DNA of 54,135 nucleotides from Candidatus Eiseniibacteriota bacterium (GCA_031370785.1 JANMQY010000049.1:1-54135); one strand, 5' to 3'. Shown: positions 23,537-47,807, counted from the first letter of the stretch. Numbers and translations are program-made. The notes: generated from the letters alone by a model not told the origin.

Positions 23537-24262
23537 GTGACCCCTGCCAGACTTCAATCGTCGCTCTGCGCCCTCGCCCTGGTCGCGGGCCTCCTCAGCC
23601 GTAGCCCTGCGTCGGCTTCCGGCATCAACCTGTCGTGGAACGATTGCGGGACCTATGGCGTGGGTGGGAAATCCTCGCCCTGCACCGCGAACAGCGGGGT
23701 CAACATCATCGTCGGCTCGTTCGTGCCGCCACCAGGGATCAACACGCTGGTGGCGATCGCGGCCACCCTCGATGTGCAGACCAGCTCGCCGGTGCTGCCC
23801 AACTGGTGGCAGCTGGACCGGGACAACGGCTGCCGGCCCTCGTCGCTCTCCAGCCAGTTCAACATCCAGACGCTCTCTTCATGCGCCGACTTCTGGCAGG
23901 GGCAGGGCCTCGGGATGATGGACTATCGCCGGAGCGACCGCGGCGCCAACCGCGGGTTGCTTCGCCTGGTGTGCGCGATCGATGAGAACGCCGGCCGGTC
24001 GGTGGATTCGGGCACGGAGTACTACGCGTTTCAGGTGGTCATCAACAACGCTCGTTCGAGCGGAAGCGACGCGTGCTCGGGATGCATGACTCCCACCTGC
24101 ATCATTCTCAATTCGATCGAGCTCGATCAGTTCGGCGGCCCCGCGCCGCAAATCCTCACCAATCCGGTCAATCGCAGCATGGTGACCTGGCAGGGCGGCG
24201 AGTGTCAGGGAGGAGTGCGCAACCGCACCTTTGGCCAGATCAAGTCGATCTACCGCAACTAG
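23537..24262 (+). CDS. Cys-rich exported protein, paralog 1, with C-terminal RNRTFGQIKSIYRN motif
   Basis: Signal peptide ending SPASA. Shares WNDC, VGSF, LP.WWQL..GCR, C.DFW, EYY.FQV and AC.GC.TP blocks with the two downstream ORFs. Confidence 0.8.
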   Translation: MTPARLQSSLCALALVAGLLSRSPASASGINLSWNDCGTYGVGGKSSPCTANSGVNIIVGSFVPPPGINTLVAIAATLDVQTSSPVLPNWWQLDRDNGCRPSSLSSQFNIQTLSSCADFWQGQGLGMMDYRRSDRGANRGLLRLVCAIDENAGRSVDSGTEYYAFQVVINNARSSGSDACSGCMTPTCIILNSIELDQFGGPAPQILTNPVNRSMVTWQGGECQGGVRNRTFGQIKSIYRN

Positions 24263-24279
24263 AATCGCGGAGGCGTTCA

Positions 24280-25056
24280 ATGATCTCGAGGCCGCTACAG
24301 ATCGCGCTGCTGGTTCTCGCCTGCTCCGCCGCGCGCGCGGATGCCTACGGCATCAACATGGCGTGGAACGACTGCGCCTCTTCCGGGGGCACTGTCAACA
24401 GGCCCTTCAACTGCGGCATCAACACCGGGCAGGATGTTCTGGTCGGCTCGTTCGTGCTGCCCGTGGCCGCACCTTCCGTGATCAGCCTCGAGGCGACCAT
24501 TGGGATCATCAACGAGCCGACATTCACGATCTGCGATCCGATCCCGCCCAATCCACAGGGCTGCGTGTATCCACCGCTGCCGTCCTGGTGGCAGCTGCAG
24601 ACCGGCGGGTGTCGCGCGGGCGCGCTGAGCGTGGCCACCAACTTCCTTCAGCCGCCATTTGGCAGTGGCGTCTGCATGGACTTCTGGCAGAACCAGGCGC
24701 TGGGCTTTTCGAACTACGAGTGGAACGTCAACGGGACCGGACAGGCCCGGCTGCGACTGGCGATCGCGATTCCGACCGATCAGGCGGCGTCCCTGGCGGA
24801 GGGTCAGGAGTATTACGGGTTCCAGGTGGTGCTGAGGCACACGCGGGCGATCGGCACGGACGCATGCGAGGGATGCTGCACTCCGGTCACGCTGTTCTGC
24901 GAACAGATGACGGTCGTGCAGAATTATCCGACGCCCGACATGGTCCTTTCCACGCCCGACCAGCAGAACTGGGTGACCTGGAACAACGGAAACCTCGCGT
25001 GCGTGACGCCGACCCGCAATCGCACCTGGGGAGGCATCAAGGCGACGTATCGGTGA
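24280..25056 (+). CDS. Cys-rich exported protein, paralog 2, with C-terminal RNRTWGGIKATYR motif
   Basis: GGAGG RBS before ATG 24280, signal peptide, same conserved blocks. Confidence 0.82.
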   Translation: MISRPLQIALLVLACSAARADAYGINMAWNDCASSGGTVNRPFNCGINTGQDVLVGSFVLPVAAPSVISLEATIGIINEPTFTICDPIPPNPQGCVYPPLPSWWQLQTGGCRAGALSVATNFLQPPFGSGVCMDFWQNQALGFSNYEWNVNGTGQARLRLAIAIPTDQAASLAEGQEYYGFQVVLRHTRAIGTDACEGCCTPVTLFCEQMTVVQNYPTPDMVLSTPDQQNWVTWNNGNLACVTPTRNRTWGGIKATYR

Positions 25057-25159
25057 GCACGATCGGACCGCTTTGACGTCCGGCGCCCCGTGCGCCGGAC
25101 GTACTGGATCGGAAGCACATGCCAGCAGGGACGCGGACCACTTTCGCCGGGGAGGTCCC

Positions 25160-25939
25160 ATGAAACTGCGCTTACCCATGCTCATCGCCGGCGTCTCACT
25201 CCTCTTCGCGAGCGCCGCGCTCGCCCAGGGCGACCTGCGCCTCGGGTGGAACAACTGCCGGGCCGACGGCGGTCTGCAGAACACGAGCTTCACCTGCGCC
25301 ACCAACACCGGCAGCGAAATCCTGGTAGGAACCTTCGTGCCGCCCTTCGACCTGCCGGCAGTGATCGGGCTCGAAGCTCTGCTCTACGTGATCGGGGAAC
25401 CGACCTACTCCTACTGCGACGGACCCGGCTGCCCGCCACCCGGGAACTACGACCTGCCGTCGTGGTGGCACCTTCAGGCCGGAGGGTGCCGGGCGACCTC
25501 GCTCATTGCCTCCTGTAACTTCGCATCGGAACCGTTCGCGTCCTCCACCCACTGCCTCGATGTCTGGTACGGACAGGCCTTCGCCGGCTTGCAATACGAC
25601 TATCCCCACCTCTCGACCAAATCCGCGCGGCTGCGTGTGGCCGTCGCAGTCAATGAGGCGTCCGCGGCCGCGCTCGTCGCCGGGCAGGAGTACTACGGCT
25701 TCCAGGTGATCGTGCGCAATACGAAGACCGTCGGCACCGGCGCCTGCGACGGGTGCTGCACCCCGGTCACCATCCTCTTCGACACGATGACGCTGACCAA
25801 CATGCAGCCGGATGGCGCCGCGTACTTCACGTTCTATCCCTCGGGCTACGAGTTCTTCGCGACCTGGCAGAACCCGTCCTCCTGTCCGACGCCGACGCGC
25901 AATCGGACGTGGGGCGAGATCAAGGCGACGTATCGGTAG
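25160..25939 (+). CDS. Cys-rich exported protein, paralog 3, with C-terminal RNRTWGEIKATYR motif
   Basis: GGAGG RBS before ATG 25160, signal peptide MKLRLPMLIAGVSLLFASAALA, same conserved blocks. Confidence 0.82.
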   Translation: MKLRLPMLIAGVSLLFASAALAQGDLRLGWNNCRADGGLQNTSFTCATNTGSEILVGTFVPPFDLPAVIGLEALLYVIGEPTYSYCDGPGCPPPGNYDLPSWWHLQAGGCRATSLIASCNFASEPFASSTHCLDVWYGQAFAGLQYDYPHLSTKSARLRVAVAVNEASAAALVAGQEYYGFQVIVRNTKTVGTGACDGCCTPVTILFDTMTLTNMQPDGAAYFTFYPSGYEFFATWQNPSSCPTPTRNRTWGEIKATYR

Positions 25940-37027: not shown

Positions 37028-39826
37028 ATGCGCCGACTTCCTTTCCTCGCACAAGTCACGCTCGCGCTCGCGCTCTCCTTGTTCGCGTCGCTCGCCCATG
37101 CCCAGGACAGGGGCTCGATCACGGGGCGGGTCATCGACCGCAAGACGGGGCACGCCATCCCGTTCGCCACGGTCAGCGTCATCGGCACCCAGCGCGGCGC
37201 GCTGACCAATTCGGAGGGCGTCTACCAGATCAGCGCCGTGCCGGCGGGCACGTGGGAGGTCAAGGCGCAGTACCTCGGCTTCAAGCCCGCCTCCAGGACC
37301 GGCGTGGTGGTCGGACCGGGCAAGCCGGTGCTGGTCGACTTCGGGCTCGAAGACATCGTCGTCAAGGAAGAGAAGGTCGTCGAGGTGACCGGGGAGCGGC
37401 GGCTGGTCGAGGTGAAGCAGGGCGCCACCATTCGCCACGTGACCGCCGGCGAGATCCGCAACCTCGCGGTGACCACGGTCGGCGACGTGCTGCAACAGCA
37501 GGCCGGCATCAGCACCGACGCCGAGCAGATTCACGTGCGGGGCGGTCGCGCCGACGAGACCGTGTTCGTCGTGAACGGCGTGGCCAACCGCGACCTGGTG
37601 ACCGGCCAGTCCACCGCCGGCCAGCTGAACGCGCGCTCGGTCTCGGAGGTGAACGTCGCCACCGGCGCCTTCGACGTGCGCTATGGCAACGCGCTCTCGG
37701 GCGTGGTCGAGATCCAGCTCAAGGAAGGCACCGACAAGTTCGAGGCCGGCATCACCACCGCGGCCGGCAGCTACGGCGGTCGCATGATGCAGCTGGTCAC
37801 CGGCGGCCCCGACCCGCTGTGGATGCCGACTCTGCGCCGTCTCGGGCTCAAGCTTCCGGGCACGGTCACCACCATCTTTGACGTCTCGGGTTCTCTCAGC
37901 GAGACGCGCTTCAGCTATCTCAACAACCAGCATGCCAGCCTTCTCGAATCCTCGGTGCTGCCGCCCAACTCGCATCCGCGCCTGCGCTCGAGTTACGAAG
38001 ACTCGTTCCTCGGCATGAAGTTCCGTTACCCCGAGTCGCTGTCCCCTTCCGAGGACAATCGCTGGGCCGCCCGCTACGGGCTGACCTGGAAGCCGAACAA
38101 TCGCGACAAGCTGACCTACACCTTCTCCAAGCGCATCGCGATCGACCAGGGCTTCAGCCGCACCTTCCTCACCGCGCAGGGCGACCTCGGCGATCCGGCG
38201 TTCCCGTGGGCGTGGTACCACCGGATCGGCAATGCGTCGACGTTCTTCGAGGACAACGTGCAGTCGTCGGTGCTGTGGCGGCGCACGCTCTCGGCGACCG
38301 GACACGCCGAGGCGCAGGTCTCGCGCTACTTCTTCGCCCAGCGTCAGGACGTGAACGGCAAGATGTGGGGAGACTACGTCGAGCCGGACGACCGGGGCTC
38401 GTTCCCGGTCGGCGATCCCCGCCGGGACGACTACTTCTACGATACCGGCGACAACAACCAGTGGTCGGACCGGCGCACCAACAGCTGGGGCATCAGCGGA
38501 ATCGTTACCCAGCGCATGCACCACAACGAGATCGAGGCCGGGATCGAGCATCAGTTCCAGACCGTTCAGTACCTCGATGTCGAGTATCCGTGGATCTTCG
38601 ACCAGAACGGGCTCGGTGAATCGCACGACCTCTGGAAGGTGCATCCGTGGGTCGGCGACCTGTTCGTGCGCGACCGGCTCGAGTACGAGGGCTTCGTCGC
38701 GAGCGTGGGCGTGCGCGTCGACTACTGGATGATCGGTCGCGAGGCCGAGCAGGCGCTCGGCGACACCACGCGCCACAACATCTCGGTTGCCGAGCGCAAC
38801 GGCTTCTACGACGAGACCAGCTCGTTCTTCGGGCGGCGCATGAAGATTCACACCTCGCCGCGCGTGATCGTGTCGCACCCGATCACCGAGAACAGCAGCT
38901 TCTTCTTCAACTACGGCCAGTTCACGCAGATCCCGTCCTATCGCTACGTGTACTCGAAGCTCAGCTCGATCTCGAGCGAGTCGTTCCCGCTGCAGGGGAA
39001 CCCGAACCTGAATCCGCAGATCTCGGTGAACTACGAGGTCGGGGCGAAGCACCTGTTCATGCCGACCGCGGCGGCGAACCTGACCTTCTTCGTGCGCGAC
39101 GTGTACGACTACCCGAGCGCCTCGCGCGTCAATCCGCTCGAAGGGTCGAACCTCGCGTCGTATTTCATCTACCTGAACGGGCACTTCTCGCGCTCGAAGG
39201 GGGTCGAGATCGAGATCGAGAAGCGCCGCTCGCATCACTGGTCGGCGAAGACCTCGTACTCCTACCAGCAGACCAAGGGCAAGAGCAGCAATCCCAACGA
39301 AGAGAAGGTGCTGCAGGAGATCGGCGGAAACGCGCAGACCCGCCTGTCCGAGGTTTTCGTGAGGTGGAACCGCCCGCACAAGCTCACCGGCAGCTTCGAC
39401 GTGCGGTTCGACGACGATGCGCCGAGCACGATGCCCTGGCTGCGGCGCTCCGGAATCAACGTCTTCGTCCAGGGCCAGTCGGGGCGCGCGTACACGCCTT
39501 ACGACCTCGCGAACCAGAATCCGATCGGTCTGCCCCATTCGATGAACGCGCCCTTCCAGGTTACGACCGACCTCAAGATCAATCGATGGTTCAAGATGAT
39601 GGGCCGCCGCTTCGACCTGAGCCTGCAGGGCACCAACATCTTCAACAACTACCTGCCGTCGCGCATCGATGCGATCACCGGCCGCGGCTACATCTGGGGC
39701 GAGGGCCAGTTCGATCCCACCTACGTGCACAGTCTCAACCAGTTCGTGAAAACCGGAACCGTCGACGATCCGTCCAACTACGGTCCCGGCGCCCAGTGGA
39801 GGCTGCAGTTTGACGTCGACATCTAG
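37028..39826 (+). CDS. TonB-dependent receptor with N-terminal carboxypeptidase-regulatory-like domain
   Basis: Signal peptide, G.ITGRVID..TG..IPFATV, plug IHVRGGRADE..F.VNG, TGAFD.RYGNALSGVV, GNPNL.P...NYEVG, N.FN barrel end. Confidence 0.92.
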   Translation: MRRLPFLAQVTLALALSLFASLAHAQDRGSITGRVIDRKTGHAIPFATVSVIGTQRGALTNSEGVYQISAVPAGTWEVKAQYLGFKPASRTGVVVGPGKPVLVDFGLEDIVVKEEKVVEVTGERRLVEVKQGATIRHVTAGEIRNLAVTTVGDVLQQQAGISTDAEQIHVRGGRADETVFVVNGVANRDLVTGQSTAGQLNARSVSEVNVATGAFDVRYGNALSGVVEIQLKEGTDKFEAGITTAAGSYGGRMMQLVTGGPDPLWMPTLRRLGLKLPGTVTTIFDVSGSLSETRFSYLNNQHASLLESSVLPPNSHPRLRSSYEDSFLGMKFRYPESLSPSEDNRWAARYGLTWKPNNRDKLTYTFSKRIAIDQGFSRTFLTAQGDLGDPAFPWAWYHRIGNASTFFEDNVQSSVLWRRTLSATGHAEAQVSRYFFAQRQDVNGKMWGDYVEPDDRGSFPVGDPRRDDYFYDTGDNNQWSDRRTNSWGISGIVTQRMHHNEIEAGIEHQFQTVQYLDVEYPWIFDQNGLGESHDLWKVHPWVGDLFVRDRLEYEGFVASVGVRVDYWMIGREAEQALGDTTRHNISVAERNGFYDETSSFFGRRMKIHTSPRVIVSHPITENSSFFFNYGQFTQIPSYRYVYSKLSSISSESFPLQGNPNLNPQISVNYEVGAKHLFMPTAAANLTFFVRDVYDYPSASRVNPLEGSNLASYFIYLNGHFSRSKGVEIEIEKRRSHHWSAKTSYSYQQTKGKSSNPNEEKVLQEIGGNAQTRLSEVFVRWNRPHKLTGSFDVRFDDDAPSTMPWLRRSGINVFVQGQSGRAYTPYDLANQNPIGLPHSMNAPFQVTTDLKINRWFKMMGRRFDLSLQGTNIFNNYLPSRIDAITGRGYIWGEGQFDPTYVHSLNQFVKTGTVDDPSNYGPGAQWRLQFDVDI

Positions 39827-40829
39827 GCGCGTTGCATTCGCGGCCGCGGCTCTCGCGGTGTGCGCTGCGGCTGCCGCCGGAGTGCTCTCGCCTGCCTTCG
39901 CGCAGAGCTCGCTCGGCGAGCAGCGCGCGGGGACTTCCTCGGGCACTTTCCTGCGCATCGGCGTCGGCGCGCGCGCCGAGGGGATGGGGGAGACGTTCGT
40001 CGCGGTGGCGAACGACCCGAGCGCGATCTACTGGAACCCTGCCGGGCTCGCCTCGATCCAGGGACACGAGGTCGCCGCCTCGCACGTGGACTGGCCCGCG
40101 AACATCCACTACGACCACCTCACGCTGGTCATTCCGTGGCAGAAGCTGAGCGGAACGATCGGAGTGCAATTCGGCCTGCTCGGCACCCGGATCGAGGAGA
40201 CGACCGAGCTGCAGTCGTTCGGCACCGGCCGCGAGTTCGCATACACCGACATGGTCATGGGCGTCGCATTCGCGCGGCGCTGGACCGACAAGCTGCTGGT
40301 GGGCGCCGGGATCAAGCTCCTGCGCGAAGACCTCGGCTCGCAGGTCGGCGGCCCGACCATCAACGCCGTGCTGTACGACGTCGGCTCGATCTTCTACCTG
40401 GGTCTCGGGAGCGTGCGCATCGCGACCGCGCTCTCCAACTTCGGTGCGGAACTGCGTCCCTCGGGGTCCTACGTCTCCGCGGTGACCGGCGAGGAGCGCC
40501 GGTACGACGGCTTCGATCCACCCATGACCTTCCATTACGGGGTCGCGTTCGAGCCGGTGGAGAATTCGACCACGCGCATCACCACCGCGATCGAGATGAA
40601 CCAGCCCGCCGACAACCAGCAGCAGCTCAGAACCGGAATGGAGTGGTCCTACCGCCGGTTCTTCGCGCTGCGCACCGGCTACAACTTCAATGCCGACCAG
40701 CTGAAGTTCAGCGCGGGCGCCGGGTTCTCGGGCGACTTCGCTTCGCTGCGCGGCACCCTCGACTACGCCTATACCGACGGCGGCGTACTCGGCGGCATCA
40801 ATCGCCTGTCGCTGGGGGTGAAGTTCTGA
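39810..40829 (+). CDS. PorV/PorQ-family (FadL-like) outer membrane beta-barrel
   Basis: FLRIGVGARAEGMG..FVAVANDPSAIYWNPAGL is the PorV-family N-terminal signature. ALRTGY and a C-terminal Phe (LGVKF). Start codon uncertain (TTG 39810). Confidence 0.88.
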   Translation: MTSTSRRVAFAAAALAVCAAAAAGVLSPAFAQSSLGEQRAGTSSGTFLRIGVGARAEGMGETFVAVANDPSAIYWNPAGLASIQGHEVAASHVDWPANIHYDHLTLVIPWQKLSGTIGVQFGLLGTRIEETTELQSFGTGREFAYTDMVMGVAFARRWTDKLLVGAGIKLLREDLGSQVGGPTINAVLYDVGSIFYLGLGSVRIATALSNFGAELRPSGSYVSAVTGEERRYDGFDPPMTFHYGVAFEPVENSTTRITTAIEMNQPADNQQQLRTGMEWSYRRFFALRTGYNFNADQLKFSAGAGFSGDFASLRGTLDYAYTDGGVLGGINRLSLGVKF

Positions 40830-42010
40830 TGCGCCGGATCACGCCATTCCTCCTCACCGTCCTGCTCGGGCTGGTCAGCAGCTGTGGAGCCGAGTTCGAG
40901 CTCCCGACCGAACGCAAGGTCGCTGCGGTGGTGCCCACCGACAAGAGCTACGCGATGCTCGCCACGTGGAAGGGCATGGACGGCGTCCGCGACGTCATGA
41001 TCACCCGGGGCCGCGGGTCGCAGCTCTTCATGTTGTTCAATCACGGCGGCAGCGGCGGACCGGCGACGCCACGTGGCGAGGTCAAGCTCTTCCCGTTCAC
41101 GCAGCCCAATCCGATCGGCGCTCCGTTCTTCGACACGCCGCGCACGGTGTTCAATCCGGTCGCGATCGCCTCGGCCGAGAACAAGCTGTTCGTGCTCGAC
41201 GAGGGCGATTCGTGCATGGCCAAGTACGACCCGGTCCGCAGCACCTGCGAGCCGGACCCGACGCGCAACGGCCGGCCGAACATCGTGTACGACTACTCGG
41301 CGATCTGGCGGGTCCGGGAATATCCGATCACCGGCGGCGACACGATCTCGACCTTCACCGACACCAGCTTTGCCTACGTGAACGGGGTCGCCGCGGATGA
41401 CCGGGGTTACGTCTATGTGTCCGGCATCGCGGTCGTGCTCGACACGCTACAGACCGATCCGCGCATTCGCACGCGCAAGTTCATCTCGCGCATCTACCGC
41501 TACATTCGCGGTCCGCGCTATCCCGGCGTCGTCCCGAGCGACGCCTACATGCCGGGGGCGAACTGGCACCGCGACTCGACCTGGAGAGTGGTGGACGGGA
41601 GCGGAGCATCCTCGGTGCAGGATCCACGCGGAATCACCTGGGCGCCACTCCAGGGAGGAGCGGTGCTGGTCGCCGACCGGGGGAACAACAAGGCCAAGCT
41701 GATCGGCACGCTCGCGCCCAACGTCGGATACGCCCGGATGGACGGCAGCGAAACTCCGACCGGCACCAGTTTCAGCGCGCCGCACAACGTGGCCGTGGAC
41801 GAATCGGGCCACCTCTACGTGGTCGATCGGGGTAATCACCGCGTGCTCCGATACGACACCTTTGGGGGCTACATCCAGGATGTCAACGTCGAGAACAATT
41901 CGGACGGTCTGCCTCTGCTCGATCCGGTCGCCGTCGGGGTCGACGATTCGCTCGCGTACGTCGGGGACCTCGGCCGCGGACAGGTGATCCGCTTCAAGAG
42001 GCGCCCGTGA
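40829..42010 (+). CDS. NHL-repeat beta-propeller lipoprotein
   Basis: Lipobox LVSSC. NHL repeats FNPVAIA..LFVLD, PRGI..VLVADRGNN, P.NVAVD..GHLYVVDRGNHRVLRYD. ATG overlaps the porV stop (TGATG). Confidence 0.82.
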   Translation: MRRITPFLLTVLLGLVSSCGAEFELPTERKVAAVVPTDKSYAMLATWKGMDGVRDVMITRGRGSQLFMLFNHGGSGGPATPRGEVKLFPFTQPNPIGAPFFDTPRTVFNPVAIASAENKLFVLDEGDSCMAKYDPVRSTCEPDPTRNGRPNIVYDYSAIWRVREYPITGGDTISTFTDTSFAYVNGVAADDRGYVYVSGIAVVLDTLQTDPRIRTRKFISRIYRYIRGPRYPGVVPSDAYMPGANWHRDSTWRVVDGSGASSVQDPRGITWAPLQGGAVLVADRGNNKAKLIGTLAPNVGYARMDGSETPTGTSFSAPHNVAVDESGHLYVVDRGNHRVLRYDTFGGYIQDVNVENNSDGLPLLDPVAVGVDDSLAYVGDLGRGQVIRFKRRP

Positions 42011-43998
42011 TCCGATTCCGCACTCTGATTCTGGCGGCCGGAACGGTCGCTCTCTGCGGAGGGTCGGCGCGTGCCGCCGAGGACCATCCGCGGATGGCGG
42101 AGCCGCTCGGGGTCCGACGCATCGAGGGCAGCGCCGCCGACTCGATCCAATTCGCGGTGCGCGTGATGAACGGCAACAAGGTGGGGCTCACGATGACCAA
42201 CTATGGCTTCATCGGGACCAACTTCTCGTCGTTCGCGCCGTCGTTCGAGTACCCGCTCGGATCCAGCCACATGCACATGGTGCGCGGCGGTCCGTGGATC
42301 GGCGCGATCTCGGCCGACGAGAACGGCGCATTCGTCGGAGTTTCACTTGCGGCCGAGGATGGCGCGGCCGGAAGCAACAGTGCCGGATCGAGCGAATTCA
42401 CCCCCGCGGGAACCTTCGTCGGTGCGAGGTCGACCCTGCCGAACAGCCGTTTCTACGATCCGGACGCGATCAGCGAGCTCGATTTCATCTCGCGCTACAG
42501 CGATCGGCCCGCCGACCAGCGCAAGAAACATCGGCCGCTGAACGTGATCGTGAGCCAGTACGCGTTCGAGTGGTCGTTCTCCGACTACGCGCACTTCGTG
42601 ATCTTCCACTACGTCATCAAGAACGACGGTCCGCCGCTGCGCAACGTGTGGGTCGGCATGTACGACGAGCTGGCCAGCGGCAACATGCGCCTTCAGAGCC
42701 AGTACCCGCCGACCGGATGGTTCTCGAAGAAATACATGACCTGGGTGGACTCGCTGAACATGGTGACCGAGCGGTTCTGCCAGAGCCGGCAGTACCCGGC
42801 GCAATGCCGGTTCGACCTCGTGCCCGAGATCGTCGGGGTCAAGCTGCTCGGGGTGAAGCCGGGAAACTTGCGAGACACGACCGACAAGAAGGTCACGCTG
42901 GCGCTGTGGACCTACGCGCCCGGCAGTGCCGCGCGCGACGAGGACAGTCTCAAGTACGTGATCATGTCGGCCGGGACCAGGCAGAGCCTGAATCCGCTTC
43001 CGGACAGCCTGGCACCCGGGACCGGGGATCCGGTTTCGCTGCTCGCGGCGGGGCCGTTCAATACGATCAACCCGGGCGACAGCATCTCGGTGGACTTCGC
43101 CTACCTCGGTGCACTCAGCTACGCGGACCTCTCCCGGCGGGCGGTAATCGCACAGCGCGCATACGATCTGAACTATATCGTCCCGGTTCCGCCGCCATCA
43201 CCGCGATTCAAGGTGGTCGCTCGAGACCACGCACTCGACTACTACTGGGACAACTCGAGCGAGGACGTCATCGATCCGACCAGCCCGGTCGGAAAGGATT
43301 TCGAGGGTTTCCGCGTGTACGTCGGCGAGGCCCGCGACACGCTCGATCTGATCGCCCAGTACGACCTGACGACCGCGCCTCACGACTCGACCGGGTTCAA
43401 CACCGGGTTCGGTGCGGTCCGGCTCGCCCAGCCCGCGGTCATCGACGGTGTGACCTATCAGTACAAGTACACCGTCGACAACCTGCGCGATGGCTTCAAG
43501 TACTTCTGCGCGGTGACCGCGTACGATCTCGGCACGCCCGAGATCGAATCCCTCGAGAGCGGCATCTCGCAGAACGAGGCGGTGGCGGTGCCCGCCCCCA
43601 CGGTCGGTGAGATCGCCGGCAAGGTGACGGTGTTCCCGAATCCGTACCGGGTCGAGGCGCTGTGGGATCGCCAGCGCCAGGCTCGCGACCACTACCTGTG
43701 GTTCGCGAACCTTCCGCAGCAGTGCTCGATCAACATCTACACGCTGTCGGGAGATCTCGTGTACCGCACCGACTTCGACGGCCGGACCTACGACGGAAGC
43801 AACGCGCGCGGCATCTACCAGCCCGGAACCGACATCAAGCCGACGCTGTCGGGCGCCACCTTCGGCTGGGACATGATCACGCGGCGCGGACAGGCGGCGG
43901 CGACCGGACTCTATATCTGGGCGGTCGAGGACAAGCAGAACGGCAAGCGACAGACCGGCAAGTTCCTCATCGTGAAGTCCGATCGGGAGAGCTTCTGA
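42007..43998 (+). CDS. Exported protein with FN3-like domain and T9SS-like C-terminal domain
   Basis: Signal peptide, N-terminal TNYG..G..FEYP.GS, FN3-like DFEGFRVY...Y.CAVTAYD, CTD VFPNPY..F.NLP..C.INIYTLSGDLV..WD..T..G..GLYIW..GKFLIVK. Confidence 0.75.
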   Translation: MIRFRTLILAAGTVALCGGSARAAEDHPRMAEPLGVRRIEGSAADSIQFAVRVMNGNKVGLTMTNYGFIGTNFSSFAPSFEYPLGSSHMHMVRGGPWIGAISADENGAFVGVSLAAEDGAAGSNSAGSSEFTPAGTFVGARSTLPNSRFYDPDAISELDFISRYSDRPADQRKKHRPLNVIVSQYAFEWSFSDYAHFVIFHYVIKNDGPPLRNVWVGMYDELASGNMRLQSQYPPTGWFSKKYMTWVDSLNMVTERFCQSRQYPAQCRFDLVPEIVGVKLLGVKPGNLRDTTDKKVTLALWTYAPGSAARDEDSLKYVIMSAGTRQSLNPLPDSLAPGTGDPVSLLAAGPFNTINPGDSISVDFAYLGALSYADLSRRAVIAQRAYDLNYIVPVPPPSPRFKVVARDHALDYYWDNSSEDVIDPTSPVGKDFEGFRVYVGEARDTLDLIAQYDLTTAPHDSTGFNTGFGAVRLAQPAVIDGVTYQYKYTVDNLRDGFKYFCAVTAYDLGTPEIESLESGISQNEAVAVPAPTVGEIAGKVTVFPNPYRVEALWDRQRQARDHYLWFANLPQQCSINIYTLSGDLVYRTDFDGRTYDGSNARGIYQPGTDIKPTLSGATFGWDMITRRGQAAATGLYIWAVEDKQNGKRQTGKFLIVKSDRESF

Positions 43999-44000
43999 CC

Positions 44001-45458
44001 ATGCGCCGTCTCCTCGCCCTCTCGGGTCTCGCATGCGCCGCGGCGCTGTTCGCGCTCGCGCCTTCCGGCTGCGGGGTCAAGGGCACGACCCGCCCGATCC
44101 TTCCGCCCGAGACCACGATCTTCATCGAGGGCCAGGTGGACACGGTGAATCACATCGTCCACCTGCACTGGTTCGGGAGCGAGCCGAACGGATACATCGC
44201 GGGATTCGAGATTCGCCTGCTCAATCCTGCGGCGCCGGCCGACACGCTCTGGCAGTTCACTACGCTCACCGACAGCGTCATCACCGTGTTCACCCCGAGC
44301 GGCTTCAGCGCGACCGTGTTCGAAGCGCGCGCGATCGACGACAAGGGGGTGAAGGATCCGACCCCGGCGCGGCAGCCGTTCAACTTCGGGAACACGCCCC
44401 CGATCGTGAAGCTGGTCGGCAAGCCGAACGCGAGCGACCGATCCGACACCACCTTCGCCTCGGTCACGGTGGACTGGACCGTGAGCGACCCGGACGGAGA
44501 CGCGAGCAAGGTGGTCATCCGCGCGTGGCTGGACGGACTGGTCGACGCGCCGGATTACGTCGTCGGCACGAGCTTCACCGTGCCGAGCGACCGCTTTCTC
44601 ATCGGGGGCGTCTACACCTCGGGTCGACGCACGCTCCACATCCAGGGCATCGACGATGGCGGGATGGCGGGGCCGATCGACAGCGTCACCTGGTACGTGA
44701 AGAAGCCGGTGGCCGGCTCGCGGGCGCGGCTGCTGCTGGTCGACGACGTGCCCACCACCGATGCCGCGAAGCCGCGAAGCGACACGCTGTACGCGAACGC
44801 GATCGCCAACGCCGGCCTTCAGCCCGGCACGTGGTCGGTCCTCCACCTTCAGTTCAACAAGCCGTTCCGGTCGGCGAAGGACATGGAGCAGACCCTCAAG
44901 CTGTTTGAAACGGTCGTGTGGTACCGCGGGGAACAGTCGGCGTTCTCGTCGATCCTTGCGAACTATGGTGAAGGTATTGGGCCTTATCTGGACGCCGGCG
45001 GCCGGATGTTCATCGAGTCCCTCAACCTGACCACGGCCATGAGCACCAATGGCGCGCTCTCCCTCGATTTCGTCGACCGCTACCTGAACTCGAACGGGGT
45101 GTTCCAGTTCGGGCTGGCCCCGGATTCATCGGCCGCCTGGGGTCTTTCGAACACCGGGGTCATCTACTGTCCGACGCTCGCCGACAGCATGCTGAACCGG
45201 CGGATCATCTCCGGGCTCCGGGGATTCCGGACGCGTAGCTCGTCCCAGATCCTGTTCATGGTGAACGCCCATACCTTTTCACAGGACAATCCCATTCCCA
45301 TGGCGGTGGCGCTGGATGTTCCGCAGGCCCAGGGGGGGCGGTTCATCGTGGACACGTTCCCCATGGTTTCCGGCACCATCTCGTCGCCGGGCTTTCCGCA
45401 GCGGGCGAGCGTCGTCCTGCTCAAGATCTTCGGGCTGCTCGGCCTCACCGGACCCTGA
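44001..45458 (+). CDS. Hypothetical lipoprotein with Ig-like beta-sandwich domains and a C-terminal alpha/beta domain
   Basis: Lipobox APSGC. PPETTI, FEARAIDD.G..DPTPA, NTPP, W..SDPDGD, LLLVDD..VVWY.G..YLDAGGR. Confidence 0.75.
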   Translation: MRRLLALSGLACAAALFALAPSGCGVKGTTRPILPPETTIFIEGQVDTVNHIVHLHWFGSEPNGYIAGFEIRLLNPAAPADTLWQFTTLTDSVITVFTPSGFSATVFEARAIDDKGVKDPTPARQPFNFGNTPPIVKLVGKPNASDRSDTTFASVTVDWTVSDPDGDASKVVIRAWLDGLVDAPDYVVGTSFTVPSDRFLIGGVYTSGRRTLHIQGIDDGGMAGPIDSVTWYVKKPVAGSRARLLLVDDVPTTDAAKPRSDTLYANAIANAGLQPGTWSVLHLQFNKPFRSAKDMEQTLKLFETVVWYRGEQSAFSSILANYGEGIGPYLDAGGRMFIESLNLTTAMSTNGALSLDFVDRYLNSNGVFQFGLAPDSSAAWGLSNTGVIYCPTLADSMLNRRIISGLRGFRTRSSSQILFMVNAHTFSQDNPIPMAVALDVPQAQGGRFIVDTFPMVSGTISSPGFPQRASVVLLKIFGLLGLTGP

Positions 45459-45674
45459 GCCGTGGGGGCCTGACCCCTCCTTTTCCCTTACCCAACACCC
45501 GCTTTGCATGGTAGCGTTTCTGCCGCGTTCATCTGCTATCCAGATCGACCAAGTGACAGGCGTCAAGTCTGGCCATGCGCCCCGCGCGGCGCAGGGAGGT
45601 GTCGCCAACGACTCGAGTCCGCACCGTGGGTTCCACACTCACCGCGCTTCTACTCCAACTAGGGGTGCCCCATC

Positions 45675-47807
45675 ATGAAAAGGCTTCTCAGCGCAGTTCT
45701 TGGCGTCACCGCAGTTCTCCTCATGGCGAGCGCCGTTCCCTCTCGGGCGTTCATCAGCTTCCCCAATCCCACCTGTCCCGACACGATGACGATCTTCGGG
45801 CTCAAAAAGGTCATGGCCGACACCAGCGCCAACCCTTGCAAGCCGGTGACGGGTACGGGCACCGCGCCCGGCGATACGGTTCTCGGCGTTGGCGGAATCA
45901 TCACCGGCTTCGATGAGAACCCGGTCGGCTTCGACATCTACATCGAGATGTCCGGAGGCGGTCCGCAGGGTGGCAAGTACGCCGGCATCGACGTGTTCAC
46001 GCATGGCACCAACCTGCGTGCGCCGTATGGGTTCAATCGCGGAGACTCGATCGTCGTCGAATTCGCCCGGGTCGCGAACTTCCAGGGCGCGCTCGAGCTC
46101 ATGTCCCCGAACAACACCTTTTCGAGCCCCAACATCAAGCTGCGCAAGGTGAACTCGGGAAACCCGCTCCCGCCTTTCGTGAGCGGCAACACCACCGACT
46201 TCAATGAGCTGCCGACCAACACGTACTTCGCGCAATACATCAACTCGCTCGTGACTCTCACCGGACCCGTGCGCGTCGCGCGTACCGGCGCAGGTCTCAG
46301 CACCCGCGCCATGCTCGTGGTCCGGGACGCGGCGCCCAGCGACTCGGTGTTCATCGACTACGGCAAGCTGACCGGGATCGTTCCGCCGGCGTTGGGCACC
46401 TATCTGACCAGCATCTCGGGCATCGCGAACTCGGCCACCCGCGGCTTGCGCATCATGCCGCGTGACGCCAACGACGTCGTCGACGTGCAGCCGCCTGGAG
46501 TTTCCGACGCGTATGCCGTCGCGGACAATGAGTACCGCGTCGTCTTCGATCGCGGCGTCACGCCTGCGTCCGCGACCAATACGGCCAACTACTCGCTGGC
46601 TTCGTTCGGCACGGTCAACTCCGCGGTGATGGACGGTTCGGCTGCGGTGATCCTCACCGTGTCCGGCACCGGACTCTCGCACGGGCAGCCCGAGACCGTG
46701 TCGGTCAACGGTGTCGTCGGCACCGCGAACGGCGTTGCCATGACCACGCCGGGCTCCGCGCTGTTCCTCGCCGGCGTCATGTCGAGCGGCGAACATTCTG
46801 CGCCGAATCCCGACTCACTCGCCGCATCGCCCTGCCGCGACTTGTCCCGCTACGTCGGATCCCCGGTCGCCGGCGTCGGTTCGGGCTTGACCGGCCAGTT
46901 CTCCAATGGTCCGTTCGGTCCGCGCTCGACGCTGACCGGCATCGTCGTCGGCGTCTACGGTAATCTCTACTACATGGAAGACGACAATCCGGCCGCCAAA
47001 CGCGGCATCACGGTGTTCGCTCCGCCGTCGGCTCTCACCCTCGGTCACCGGTACATCCTTGCCGGCGCCGATGAGGAGTTCTACAGCGAGAACGAATTCG
47101 CGGCGATCGTCTACGTCAAGGACATCGGCACTCCCGGTGTGCCGGCTCCGGTCGCGCTTCCGGTCGGTATCGCGAACTACGACACCTGCGATGCGAACCA
47201 GAATATCCGCAGCGGTCGTGACTACCTGTCGGATCTGGTGAAGCTCCAGACCGTCAAGGTCGTGCAGCGGTTCGCGACGCTCCCGACCAACGGCTTCCAC
47301 GTCACCGGGCCGCACCCCGACTACGGCGACACCATCTTCATCGAGAATCAGAACGCGGTGCTGGGTCCGAACTCGGCAAGCAATCCGAACTACCCTGCTC
47401 TGGGCTCGCTGGTGACCGTGATCGGCTGCGAGCACTACACGACCAACACCAGTTCGCCGAGCTTCCGGGTGTGCCCGCGCAGCCCGGCGGACATCACCAT
47501 TCTGGATCCCGCGTCGGTCGGTACGCCGTCGGCGAGGCTTTCGTTCTCGGCGTTCCCGAACCCGGCGAGCTCCGTGAATCTCGCCTTCACGCTTCCCAGG
47601 GCCGCCGACGTCGAGCTCGGCGTCTACGATCTCGTCGGTCGCCGCGTGGCGATGATTGCCAGCGGGCCGATGGGCGCGGGCGCGTACCAGAAGGTGTGGC
47701 GTGGTCTGGATGACGGCGGCAACAAGGTGCGCTCGGGTGTGTACTTCTATCACCTGCGTGCCGGCAATGAGGTCCTCAAGACTCACACCGTCCTCATCAA
47801 CAACTGA
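45675..47807 (+). CDS. Exported multi-domain protein (OB-fold-like repeats + Ig-like domain) with FlgD/T9SS-like C-terminal domain
   Basis: Signal peptide. Two G(I/V)(I/V)..-Y.E-GI.VF-G....G...E/F blocks resembling extracellular-nuclease OB folds. Ig-like F...V..ASA.N.ANY. CTD AFPNP..F.LP..LGVYDL.GRRV..W.G.DD.G..V.SGVYFY.L. Confidence 0.75.
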   Translation: MKRLLSAVLGVTAVLLMASAVPSRAFISFPNPTCPDTMTIFGLKKVMADTSANPCKPVTGTGTAPGDTVLGVGGIITGFDENPVGFDIYIEMSGGGPQGGKYAGIDVFTHGTNLRAPYGFNRGDSIVVEFARVANFQGALELMSPNNTFSSPNIKLRKVNSGNPLPPFVSGNTTDFNELPTNTYFAQYINSLVTLTGPVRVARTGAGLSTRAMLVVRDAAPSDSVFIDYGKLTGIVPPALGTYLTSISGIANSATRGLRIMPRDANDVVDVQPPGVSDAYAVADNEYRVVFDRGVTPASATNTANYSLASFGTVNSAVMDGSAAVILTVSGTGLSHGQPETVSVNGVVGTANGVAMTTPGSALFLAGVMSSGEHSAPNPDSLAASPCRDLSRYVGSPVAGVGSGLTGQFSNGPFGPRSTLTGIVVGVYGNLYYMEDDNPAAKRGITVFAPPSALTLGHRYILAGADEEFYSENEFAAIVYVKDIGTPGVPAPVALPVGIANYDTCDANQNIRSGRDYLSDLVKLQTVKVVQRFATLPTNGFHVTGPHPDYGDTIFIENQNAVLGPNSASNPNYPALGSLVTVIGCEHYTTNTSSPSFRVCPRSPADITILDPASVGTPSARLSFSAFPNPASSVNLAFTLPRAADVELGVYDLVGRRVAMIASGPMGAGAYQKVWRGLDDGGNKVRSGVYFYHLRAGNEVLKTHTVLINN

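Follow-up and report, generated by a model that had tools for sequence, protein, structure and literature searches.

A Short C-Terminal Tail of Small, Putatively Exported Proteins That Alternates with the Type IX Secretion Domain in Eiseniibacteriota and Related Phyla

Introduction

The 54,135-nucleotide stretch of DNA from Candidatus Eiseniibacteriota bacterium (GCA_031370785.1 JANMQY010000049.1:1-54135; hereafter, the window, at its full length) harbors three tandem genes for Cys-rich, putatively exported proteins, all ending in a similar short tail. The question raised by this locus is whether the tail is a part of the Cys-rich fold or a sorting signal borne by unrelated proteins and, in the latter case, which system could read it. 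The first-pass annotation of the window favored a minimal amphipathic-helix signal for export or anchoring, working alongside PorU and PorV of the T9SS (type IX secretion system). As compiled below, the evidence shows that the tail is a multi-phylum, anchor-less C-terminal tag alternating with the CTD (C-terminal domain) that T9SS cargo carries, and this tag is apparently uncatalogued. It is very probably a targeting tag of some kind; that it serves small cargo as a minimal sorting signal linked to the T9SS has about an even chance of being correct.

A Portable Motif at the Extreme C-Terminus

In the gene-array family, the last 16 residues are indeed more conserved (0.67) than the 28 residues before them (0.50) or the body (0.46), the figures being mean column values of a 52-sequence alignment. 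No model of Pfam (tried to E 1) or NCBIfam matches the three array proteins or the tail, and searches of PDB sequences with two tail profiles returned zero matches and two chance matches.

The whole genome (G000; 3.44 Mb in 147 contigs, 100% complete) was scanned for the motif, as proposed in the first-pass annotation. Across 51,807 six-frame stop-to-stop frames, all 31 matches of the strict pattern [ST][WF]G.[ILV]K..[YF] end one or two residues before a stop codon, against a background of ~4% of sequence windows lying that close to a stop; such terminal placement is not due to chance. The consensus of ~16 residues can be written as P-T-[PA]-[VT]-x3-[ST]-W-G-x-[IL]-K-x-x-Y-R, or TPxxxxTWGxLKxxYR, the aromatic residue usually being followed by a single terminal R, K, or H. 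A position-specific scoring matrix (PSSM) run over the genome retrieved 34 carriers with scores of 30-57; the next frame, scoring 26.3, was set aside, since its motif lies six residues from the stop and the frame appears to be non-coding, and the remaining scores were 13.5 or lower. A hidden Markov model (HMM) of the 34 tails, compared with a library clustered at 50% identity, yielded 1,195 clusters at E <= 0.001; among the best 150, which were inspected, 146 end one or two residues after the motif aromatic, three end within eight residues, and one is a spurious repeat (P0191).

With the tails removed, the 34 carriers fall into 24 groups (BLASTP), so the motif is not confined to the family of the array. 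Their bodies matched, in some cases below the cut-off, Pfam models as diverse as NHL (five proteins), CHRD, lamin-tail LTD (two proteins), cupredoxin, DUF4114, DUF7451, and a Kre9-like domain. Contig ends truncate three carriers. The 31 complete ones all possess a predicted signal peptide, compared with 665 of 2,576 called genes; both figures come from a simple heuristic (not SignalP), the carrier starts having been picked manually with an eye to the signal peptide and the background taken from our own gene caller. A hydrophobic segment after residue 40 was found in none of the 31, bearing out the expectation that the tail lacks a transmembrane helix.

Two further observations concern individual carriers. 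On contig C71 (L021:688-1977), two tailed paralogs display paired DxDxDG-like repeats, dockerin- or EF-hand-like by eye, with no Pfam match. The tailed proteins at C72:6572-7204 and C105:936-1637 are near-duplicates (95%), the C72 copy being cut by the contig end.

Exchange of the Tail with the T9SS Domain

Whether the tail is replaced by the CTD among homologs, a check put forward together with the original proposal, can be answered in the affirmative for two families. The first one is the array family, from which 69 homologs were retrieved; the CTD was called with an HMM built from 62 CTDs of G000, the matches having E values of 6e-12 or lower. Among the 61 homologs of up to 312 amino acids (aa), 53 bear the strict tail and 58 the relaxed one, whereas the eight long homologs (408-1,828 aa) all terminate with a type A CTD, the tail being absent from each of them. 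These eight proteins hold 22 copies (one partial) of the cohesin-like domain described below, each ending before the position of the tail. The long homologs (P0057, P0063-P0069) comprise 1-5 Cys-rich cohesin-like copies each, most together with TIG domains, followed by the terminal T9SS CTD, an architecture reminiscent of scaffoldins.

The second family consists of small proteins (132-146 aa) built of a signal peptide, an Fn3-like domain, and the tail, with loci in Ignavibacteria, Rhodothermia, Kapabacteria, and Calditrichota; in Roseithermus sacchariphilus, a thermophile available in culture, the only tail copy resides on a protein of this kind (139 aa). The tail TWGSIKAMFR is present in 110 of the 120 best homologs, a closely related set, and the linker reads S-G-V at 100/91/78%. 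The body of the small protein recurs as the module directly preceding the CTD in large proteins: a CTD is present in 20 of the 20 top-ranked large matches fetched (15 by HMM, five by eye). In the ESM Atlas, the small protein falls into Ignavibacteriota clusters, with a lead at 0.82 to a cluster in which 11% are Por_Secre_tail.

Since the exchange is clean and occurs at the same position in both families, the tail and the CTD would share the same destination; with the tail standing where the CTD otherwise would, the T9SS is the system to which its reader may belong. The exchange is accompanied by a difference in size, the tail being strongly biased to proteins of less than ~340 aa. In G000, where the array family is represented by six members, all short and tailed, with no long member, the complete tail carriers are 157-330 aa long (n = 31, median 247), while the median length of the CTD carriers is 761 aa and only 7 of 75 of them are 330 aa or shorter (75 of the 81 TIGR04183 matches, two being without a called gene and four cut by contig ends).

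Predicted Fold of the Body and the Tail

The AlphaFold2 model of the third array protein, obtained with the 52-sequence alignment, features a confident beta-sandwich and a linker followed by a helix at residues 251-258 with a predicted local distance difference test score (pLDDT) of 61-67. In VIA-align, the predicted body was closest to the cohesin 2vo8 (Z 10.3, root-mean-square deviation 2.8, 130 aligned residues within the range 21-239, leaving the tail outside), and the best 15 rows of the structural alignment were all cohesin entries; Foldseek gave a weak agreement with cohesin, with a TM score of about 0.3. The body is therefore predicted to possess a cohesin-like fold. It resembles cohesin modules (PDB 2vo8, 2w1n, 1ohz) by a predicted beta-sandwich aligning over 130-140 residues and by the repetition of the domain in long scaffold-like homologs, but differs from them by an identity of only ~10%, numerous Cys residues, and the lack of a match to Pfam PF00963.

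The tail is predicted as a separate low-confidence helix in two different folds, those of the array protein and of the small Fn3 protein, and can be pictured as a free helix of 8-12 residues after a flexible linker. The view that it is a structural part of the Cys-rich fold could draw on its conservation in the short family members; this view is contradicted by the 24 unrelated families, by the separate helix in both folds, and by the tail-less domain copies of the long homologs, and is extremely unlikely to be right.

The proposed amphipathic character of the helix holds on average (mean hydrophobic moment 0.44 over the 34 tails), but the moment of individual tails varies between 0.15 and 0.64, in contrast to the near-fixed W, G, K, and Y, for which reason a protein reader appears more likely than plain binding to lipid. 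A basic amphipathic helix binding membrane lipid or lipopolysaccharide directly, with no reader at all, would account for this mean moment, for the net charge of +2 to +6 around the motif in the same 34 tails, and for the predicted free helix. It is nevertheless an improbable solution: the moment drops to 0.15-0.3 in several tails, lipid binding would require neither the invariance of G and K nor a constant spacing to the stop or a conserved motif in the linker, and the carriers that are lipoproteins already have an anchor.

The cohesin-like prediction suggests yet another role, i.e., a mini-dockerin or oligomerization helix plugging small proteins into T9SS-exported cohesin-like scaffolds, for which the CTD-tailed long homologs with their cohesin-like copies would be the candidates. 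This option is still less probable, given that G000 lacks a long family member and that a Pfam cohesin occurs in only 29 of 59 genomes possessing the small Fn3 protein, as well as in 23 genomes without it.

Distribution among Phyla

The first-pass annotation ascribed similar tails to candidate phyla of the Fibrobacterota-Chlorobiota-Bacteroidota (FCB) group, and such a spread was confirmed. A DNA pattern comprising the tail and the stop matched 142 of 151 genomes of the phylum, whereas the reversed pattern gave zero matches in every genome; the pattern accepts TGG in place of the stop and is biased to GC-rich codons. A scan of GTDB revealed at least 124 pattern loci, and among the matches listed ~115 are real tails and nine look like chance occurrences (L064, L066, L087, L090, L093, L145, L146, L148, L152). 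The taxa named among the listed matches include Eisenbacteria, Krumholzibacteriota, Latescibacterota, Aegiribacteria, Poribacteria, Gemmatimonadota-labelled bins, Ignavibacteria, Calditrichaceae, Kapabacterium, and the cultured R. sacchariphilus, although some of the bin labels are probably wrong. The number of tails reaches 58 per genome. In a Poribacteria genome (G160), a variant tail, [AP]VEPxxKLxTTW[GA]x[IL]K, lacks the final aromatic residue (L237, L239, L243, L245, L247) and is terminal in five of six sampled loci.

A match to SprA was found in 26 of 30 genomes chosen from the GTDB scan (22 over the cut-off). Three of the four SprA-less genomes were picked up by chance pattern matches, and the fourth (G168) is probably mis-binned. 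The latter, labelled Planctomycetota and lacking SprA and PorV, was considered as a T9SS-less carrier and rejected: its tail gene lies beside a CTD gene on a 12-kb contig (L271, C121), and six other pattern matches sampled from it are not tails.

Comparison with Known C-Terminal Signals

The type A CTD of T9SS cargo (TIGR04183 / PF18962, in G000 in a FlgD_ig-like PF13860 form) is read by PorV and cut by PorU. Like this domain, the tail occupies the extreme C-terminus of signal-peptide proteins, follows a short linker with a possible likeness to the PT/GI site, and occurs on many unrelated cargos; the two are exchanged in two families, and the same genomes carry SprA, PorV, and PorU. At the same time, the tail comprises ~16 residues predicted to be helical, in contrast to the 70-85 residue beta-sandwich of the CTD, lacks motifs B, D (GxY), and E of the last strands as well as the terminal K strand motif, and shows a strong bias to small proteins. 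None of the 34 tail carriers matched TIGR04183 or PF18962.

The T9SS signal can shrink: one report (PMC11969387) describes CTDs of Prevotella intermedia of 43-55 aa that are still cleaved and glycosylated. The tail would share with them the position of the cleavage-site consensus, but has a third of their length, is predicted to be helical, and possesses none of motifs B, D, and E. The published consensus of PorU cleavage, PT/GI, comes from the same source. A logo of 92 tail linkers, P-[TVS]-[PA]-[VTA]-E, can be aligned with it, so that cutting by PorU may be possible, unless blocked by the Pro found in 47 of them.

The tripartite signals LPXTG, PEP-CTERM, GlyGly-CTERM, and MYXO-CTERM offer another comparison. 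By the criteria of the preprint describing them (bioRxiv 10.1101/2023.06.07.544157), the tail displays six of eight recognition attributes: it is terminal, multicopy, has at least three near-invariant residues, resides on proteins with signal peptides and on unrelated carriers, and has homologs with another signal. It differs by the absence of a hydrophobic transmembrane segment (0/31) and of the cluster of 2-5 Arg/basic residues. A cognate membrane protease was not identified in a search that covered the exosortase. The idea of a degenerate PEP-CTERM processed by the exosortase of this genome is very improbable. The enzyme is present (TIGR04178, 75.7 bits), and among the carrier bodies there are some similar to the cargo of PEP-CTERM systems (ScyF-like NHL, below the cut-off, with E down to 2e-66). 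However, besides the missing transmembrane segment, the enzyme belongs to an exopolysaccharide (EPS) locus (C133:51219-58701) with EpsI-, PrsK-, and PrsR-like genes, and the genome encodes, at C108:92472-92774, a canonical PEP-CTERM protein of 100 aa, the only one found by regular expression; TIGR02595 gave no match over G000, its control being silent as well.

In its architecture, the tailed Fn3 protein recalls PorA of Porphyromonas gingivalis, which consists of a signal peptide, an Ig-like domain, and a CTD (PMC7712824). Both are small, with one Ig-like domain between the signal peptide and the secretion signal, but in PorA the CTD is a genuine one and the domain is FimH-like; the likeness is architectural, and no homology is claimed. 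According to PMC11285876, Ignavibacteriota, Rhodothermota, and further FCB phyla may possess the T9SS. No description of the tail was found in the open literature, including searches with six exact motif spellings (subscription journals were mostly not covered), and the Latescibacteria paper PMC4454575 contains no mention of cohesin, dockerin, or C-terminal. As judged from sequence, the tail would work like a C-terminal sorting signal, yet it falls outside the classes of the T9SS CTD, the short Prevotella CTD, and the tripartite signals.

Candidate Readers of the Tail

G000 encodes SprA (2,064 aa), a PorU that passes the NF033707 cut-off and has a PorV next to it, and nine PorV-family genes over the cut-off. 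Phylogenetic profiling, suggested in the first-pass annotation as a way to find a co-occurring protease or barrel, was carried out in 161 genomes of the phylum of Roseithermus, of which 59 encode the full-length small Fn3 protein. PorU over the cut-off was detected in 58 of these 59 genomes vs. 58 of the 102 others; the genomes being related, this pattern represents nesting rather than statistical proof. PorU thus fits best of four candidates, the others being a SprA-like barrel of ~1,100 aa (52/59), an M6-like protein (NF052323, 42/59), and cohesin PF00963 (29/59). A link of the tail to PorU and PorV can be inferred from its position, its swapping with the CTD, and this co-occurrence.

Under the preferred reading, i.e., a T9SS-linked sorting signal, the tail would be a portable C-terminal tag on small signal-peptide proteins, exchangeable with the T9SS CTD. 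The cargo would be exported by Sec and then fold, its many Cys residues suggesting disulfides. The exposed helix could be bound via its W, I/L, K, and Y face by a PorV-family barrel or another part of the T9SS, and the cargo would then either pass through SprA or stay attached to the outer membrane. The linker, with its possible likeness to the PorU site, would perhaps be cleaved if its second residue is small and perhaps resist cleavage if this residue is Pro. The three genes of the array would accordingly represent stand-alone cohesin-like modules with a tag, their longer multi-domain relatives making use of the CTD.

A number of observations weigh against this reading. The tail shares neither sequence nor fold with the CTD, and even the short Prevotella CTDs retain three beta-strands and motifs B, D, and E (PMC11969387). 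Pro stands in 47 of 92 linkers where PorU prefers a small residue and may block cutting. Half of the PorU-positive genomes (58/116) are devoid of the small protein, which is thus dispensable for the T9SS; the 44 genomes lacking both PorU and the small protein probably represent few clades, hence the co-occurrence is not independent evidence. A conserved T9SS neighbor of carrier genes was not encountered in the loci inspected, and the gene of the GldM motor (TIGR03517) was not matched in G000, where the control was silent too. The size ceiling is soft, four carriers in other genomes exceeding 443 aa, and two carriers are lipoproteins with looser tails.

In another reading, the tail would be a helix docking onto a conserved envelope protein that is not part of the T9SS and keeping small proteins periplasmic or surface-bound, with the overlap with the T9SS arising only since both are FCB-wide. 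The near-invariant W, G, K, and Y and the uniform TWGSIKAMFR of the small-protein homologs imply a protein partner, the PorU genomes without the small protein are readily accommodated, and the lipoprotein carriers belong to a conserved barrel-lipoprotein-lipoprotein operon with the same gene order in 10 of 10 genomes of the family. On the other hand, the clean swap between tail and CTD in two families implies a common destination, the SprA-like barrel was not found in seven and the M6-like protein in 17 of the 59 carrier genomes, and the operon-linked lipoprotein was detected in no more than 12 of the 61 genomes that make up the class. Such a docking helix is a rather unlikely alternative. In G000, this operon (C133:85639-89203; L178:9643-13204) encodes a predicted outer-membrane barrel of 712 aa, a lipoprotein of 215 aa, and a lipoprotein with a degenerate WG tail, none of them with family matches. 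As for the neighborhood of the small-protein gene, no shared neighbor was found beyond two related genomes (eight loci, +/-1.3 kb; plus one conserved carrier pair in G000).

Tentatively, and with somewhat less confidence than an even chance would warrant, the T9SS can be proposed to read a second, unrelated class of signals: a cleavage-site-plus-helix peptide of 14-18 residues on small cargo, spread over at least six FCB-related lineages, with one near-invariant copy on the Fn3 protein in cultured Rhodothermia. If true, this would be the shortest known signal for the export of folded proteins through SprA. T9SS cargo is currently predicted from beta-sandwich CTDs only; with the tail as a second signal, tens of proteins per genome would join the predicted surface proteome in Eisenbacteria, Krumholzibacteriota, Latescibacterota, Fermentibacterota, and, as the variant, Poribacteria. 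A helix would then be read where only strands are known, providing a very small tag for export or display. Even with a reader other than the T9SS, an anchor-less tag shared by several phyla implies an uncharacterized step of envelope targeting.

Two gene clusters of G000 may be mentioned along with its T9SS genes. One, on C7 (L180:3651-13608), comprises a CTD protein, a PorV with a FlgD-like tail, a PorW/YbgF-like tetratricopeptide repeat protein, ExbB, two ExbD, and TonB; GldM not having been found, the cluster is a possible substitute energizer. In the other (C142:20747-25806; L175:14748-19804), the PorU-PorV cluster includes, beside a BamA/TamA-like gene, the gene of a protein of 1,118 aa in which a short segment is SprA-like; this protein has relatives in 110 of the 161 genomes of the phylum of Roseithermus and is possibly a second, smaller translocon.

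The Three-Gene Array and Its Surroundings

The three open reading frames of 241, 258, and 259 aa are present in the window with the tails ascribed to them (Table 1). Two of the tails lie exactly where they had been placed; the first one begins at 24215 rather than 24218, a three-base offset arising from counting the V of VRNRTF. The reported Cys/Trp scaffold was confirmed as well: the paralogs are 32-39% identical to the first protein, the Cys and Trp columns are common, and each protein has 10-12 Cys residues.

Table 1. Features of the three-gene array, in coordinates of the window.
Feature	Position	Strand	Description	Score or method
Gene 1	23537..24262	+	241-aa Cys-rich protein, GTG start; predicted signal peptide, cohesin-like body, and WG tail (F variant)	
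Gene 1 tail	24215..24262	+	VRNRTFGQIKSIYRN + stop	PSSM score 41.9
Gene 2	24280..25056	+	258-aa paralog, ATG start, GGAGG upstream	
Gene 2 tail	25006..25056	+	TPTRNRTWGGIKATYR + stop	PSSM score 54.4
Gene 3	25160..25939	+	259-aa paralog, ATG start, GGAGG upstream; protein used for folding	
Gene 3 body	25220..25876	+	predicted cohesin-like beta-sandwich, residues 21-239	AlphaFold2 mean pLDDT 87.6; VIA-align
Gene 3 tail	25889..25939	+	TPTRNRTWGEIKATYR + stop; predicted helix (residues 251-258) on a lower-confidence linker	

Of three CTD proteins announced for the rest of the window, two were recovered with TIGR04183 over the cut-off (1954-2187 and 47553-47798); the third (42094-43998) gave only a weak C-terminal match, at E 8.5e-4 to PorZ. 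Positions 37028-47807 of the window form an operon-like run of genes for a TonB-dependent receptor, a PorV-family barrel (39882-40829), an NHL lipoprotein, a CTD-like protein, a lipoprotein, and a CTD protein.

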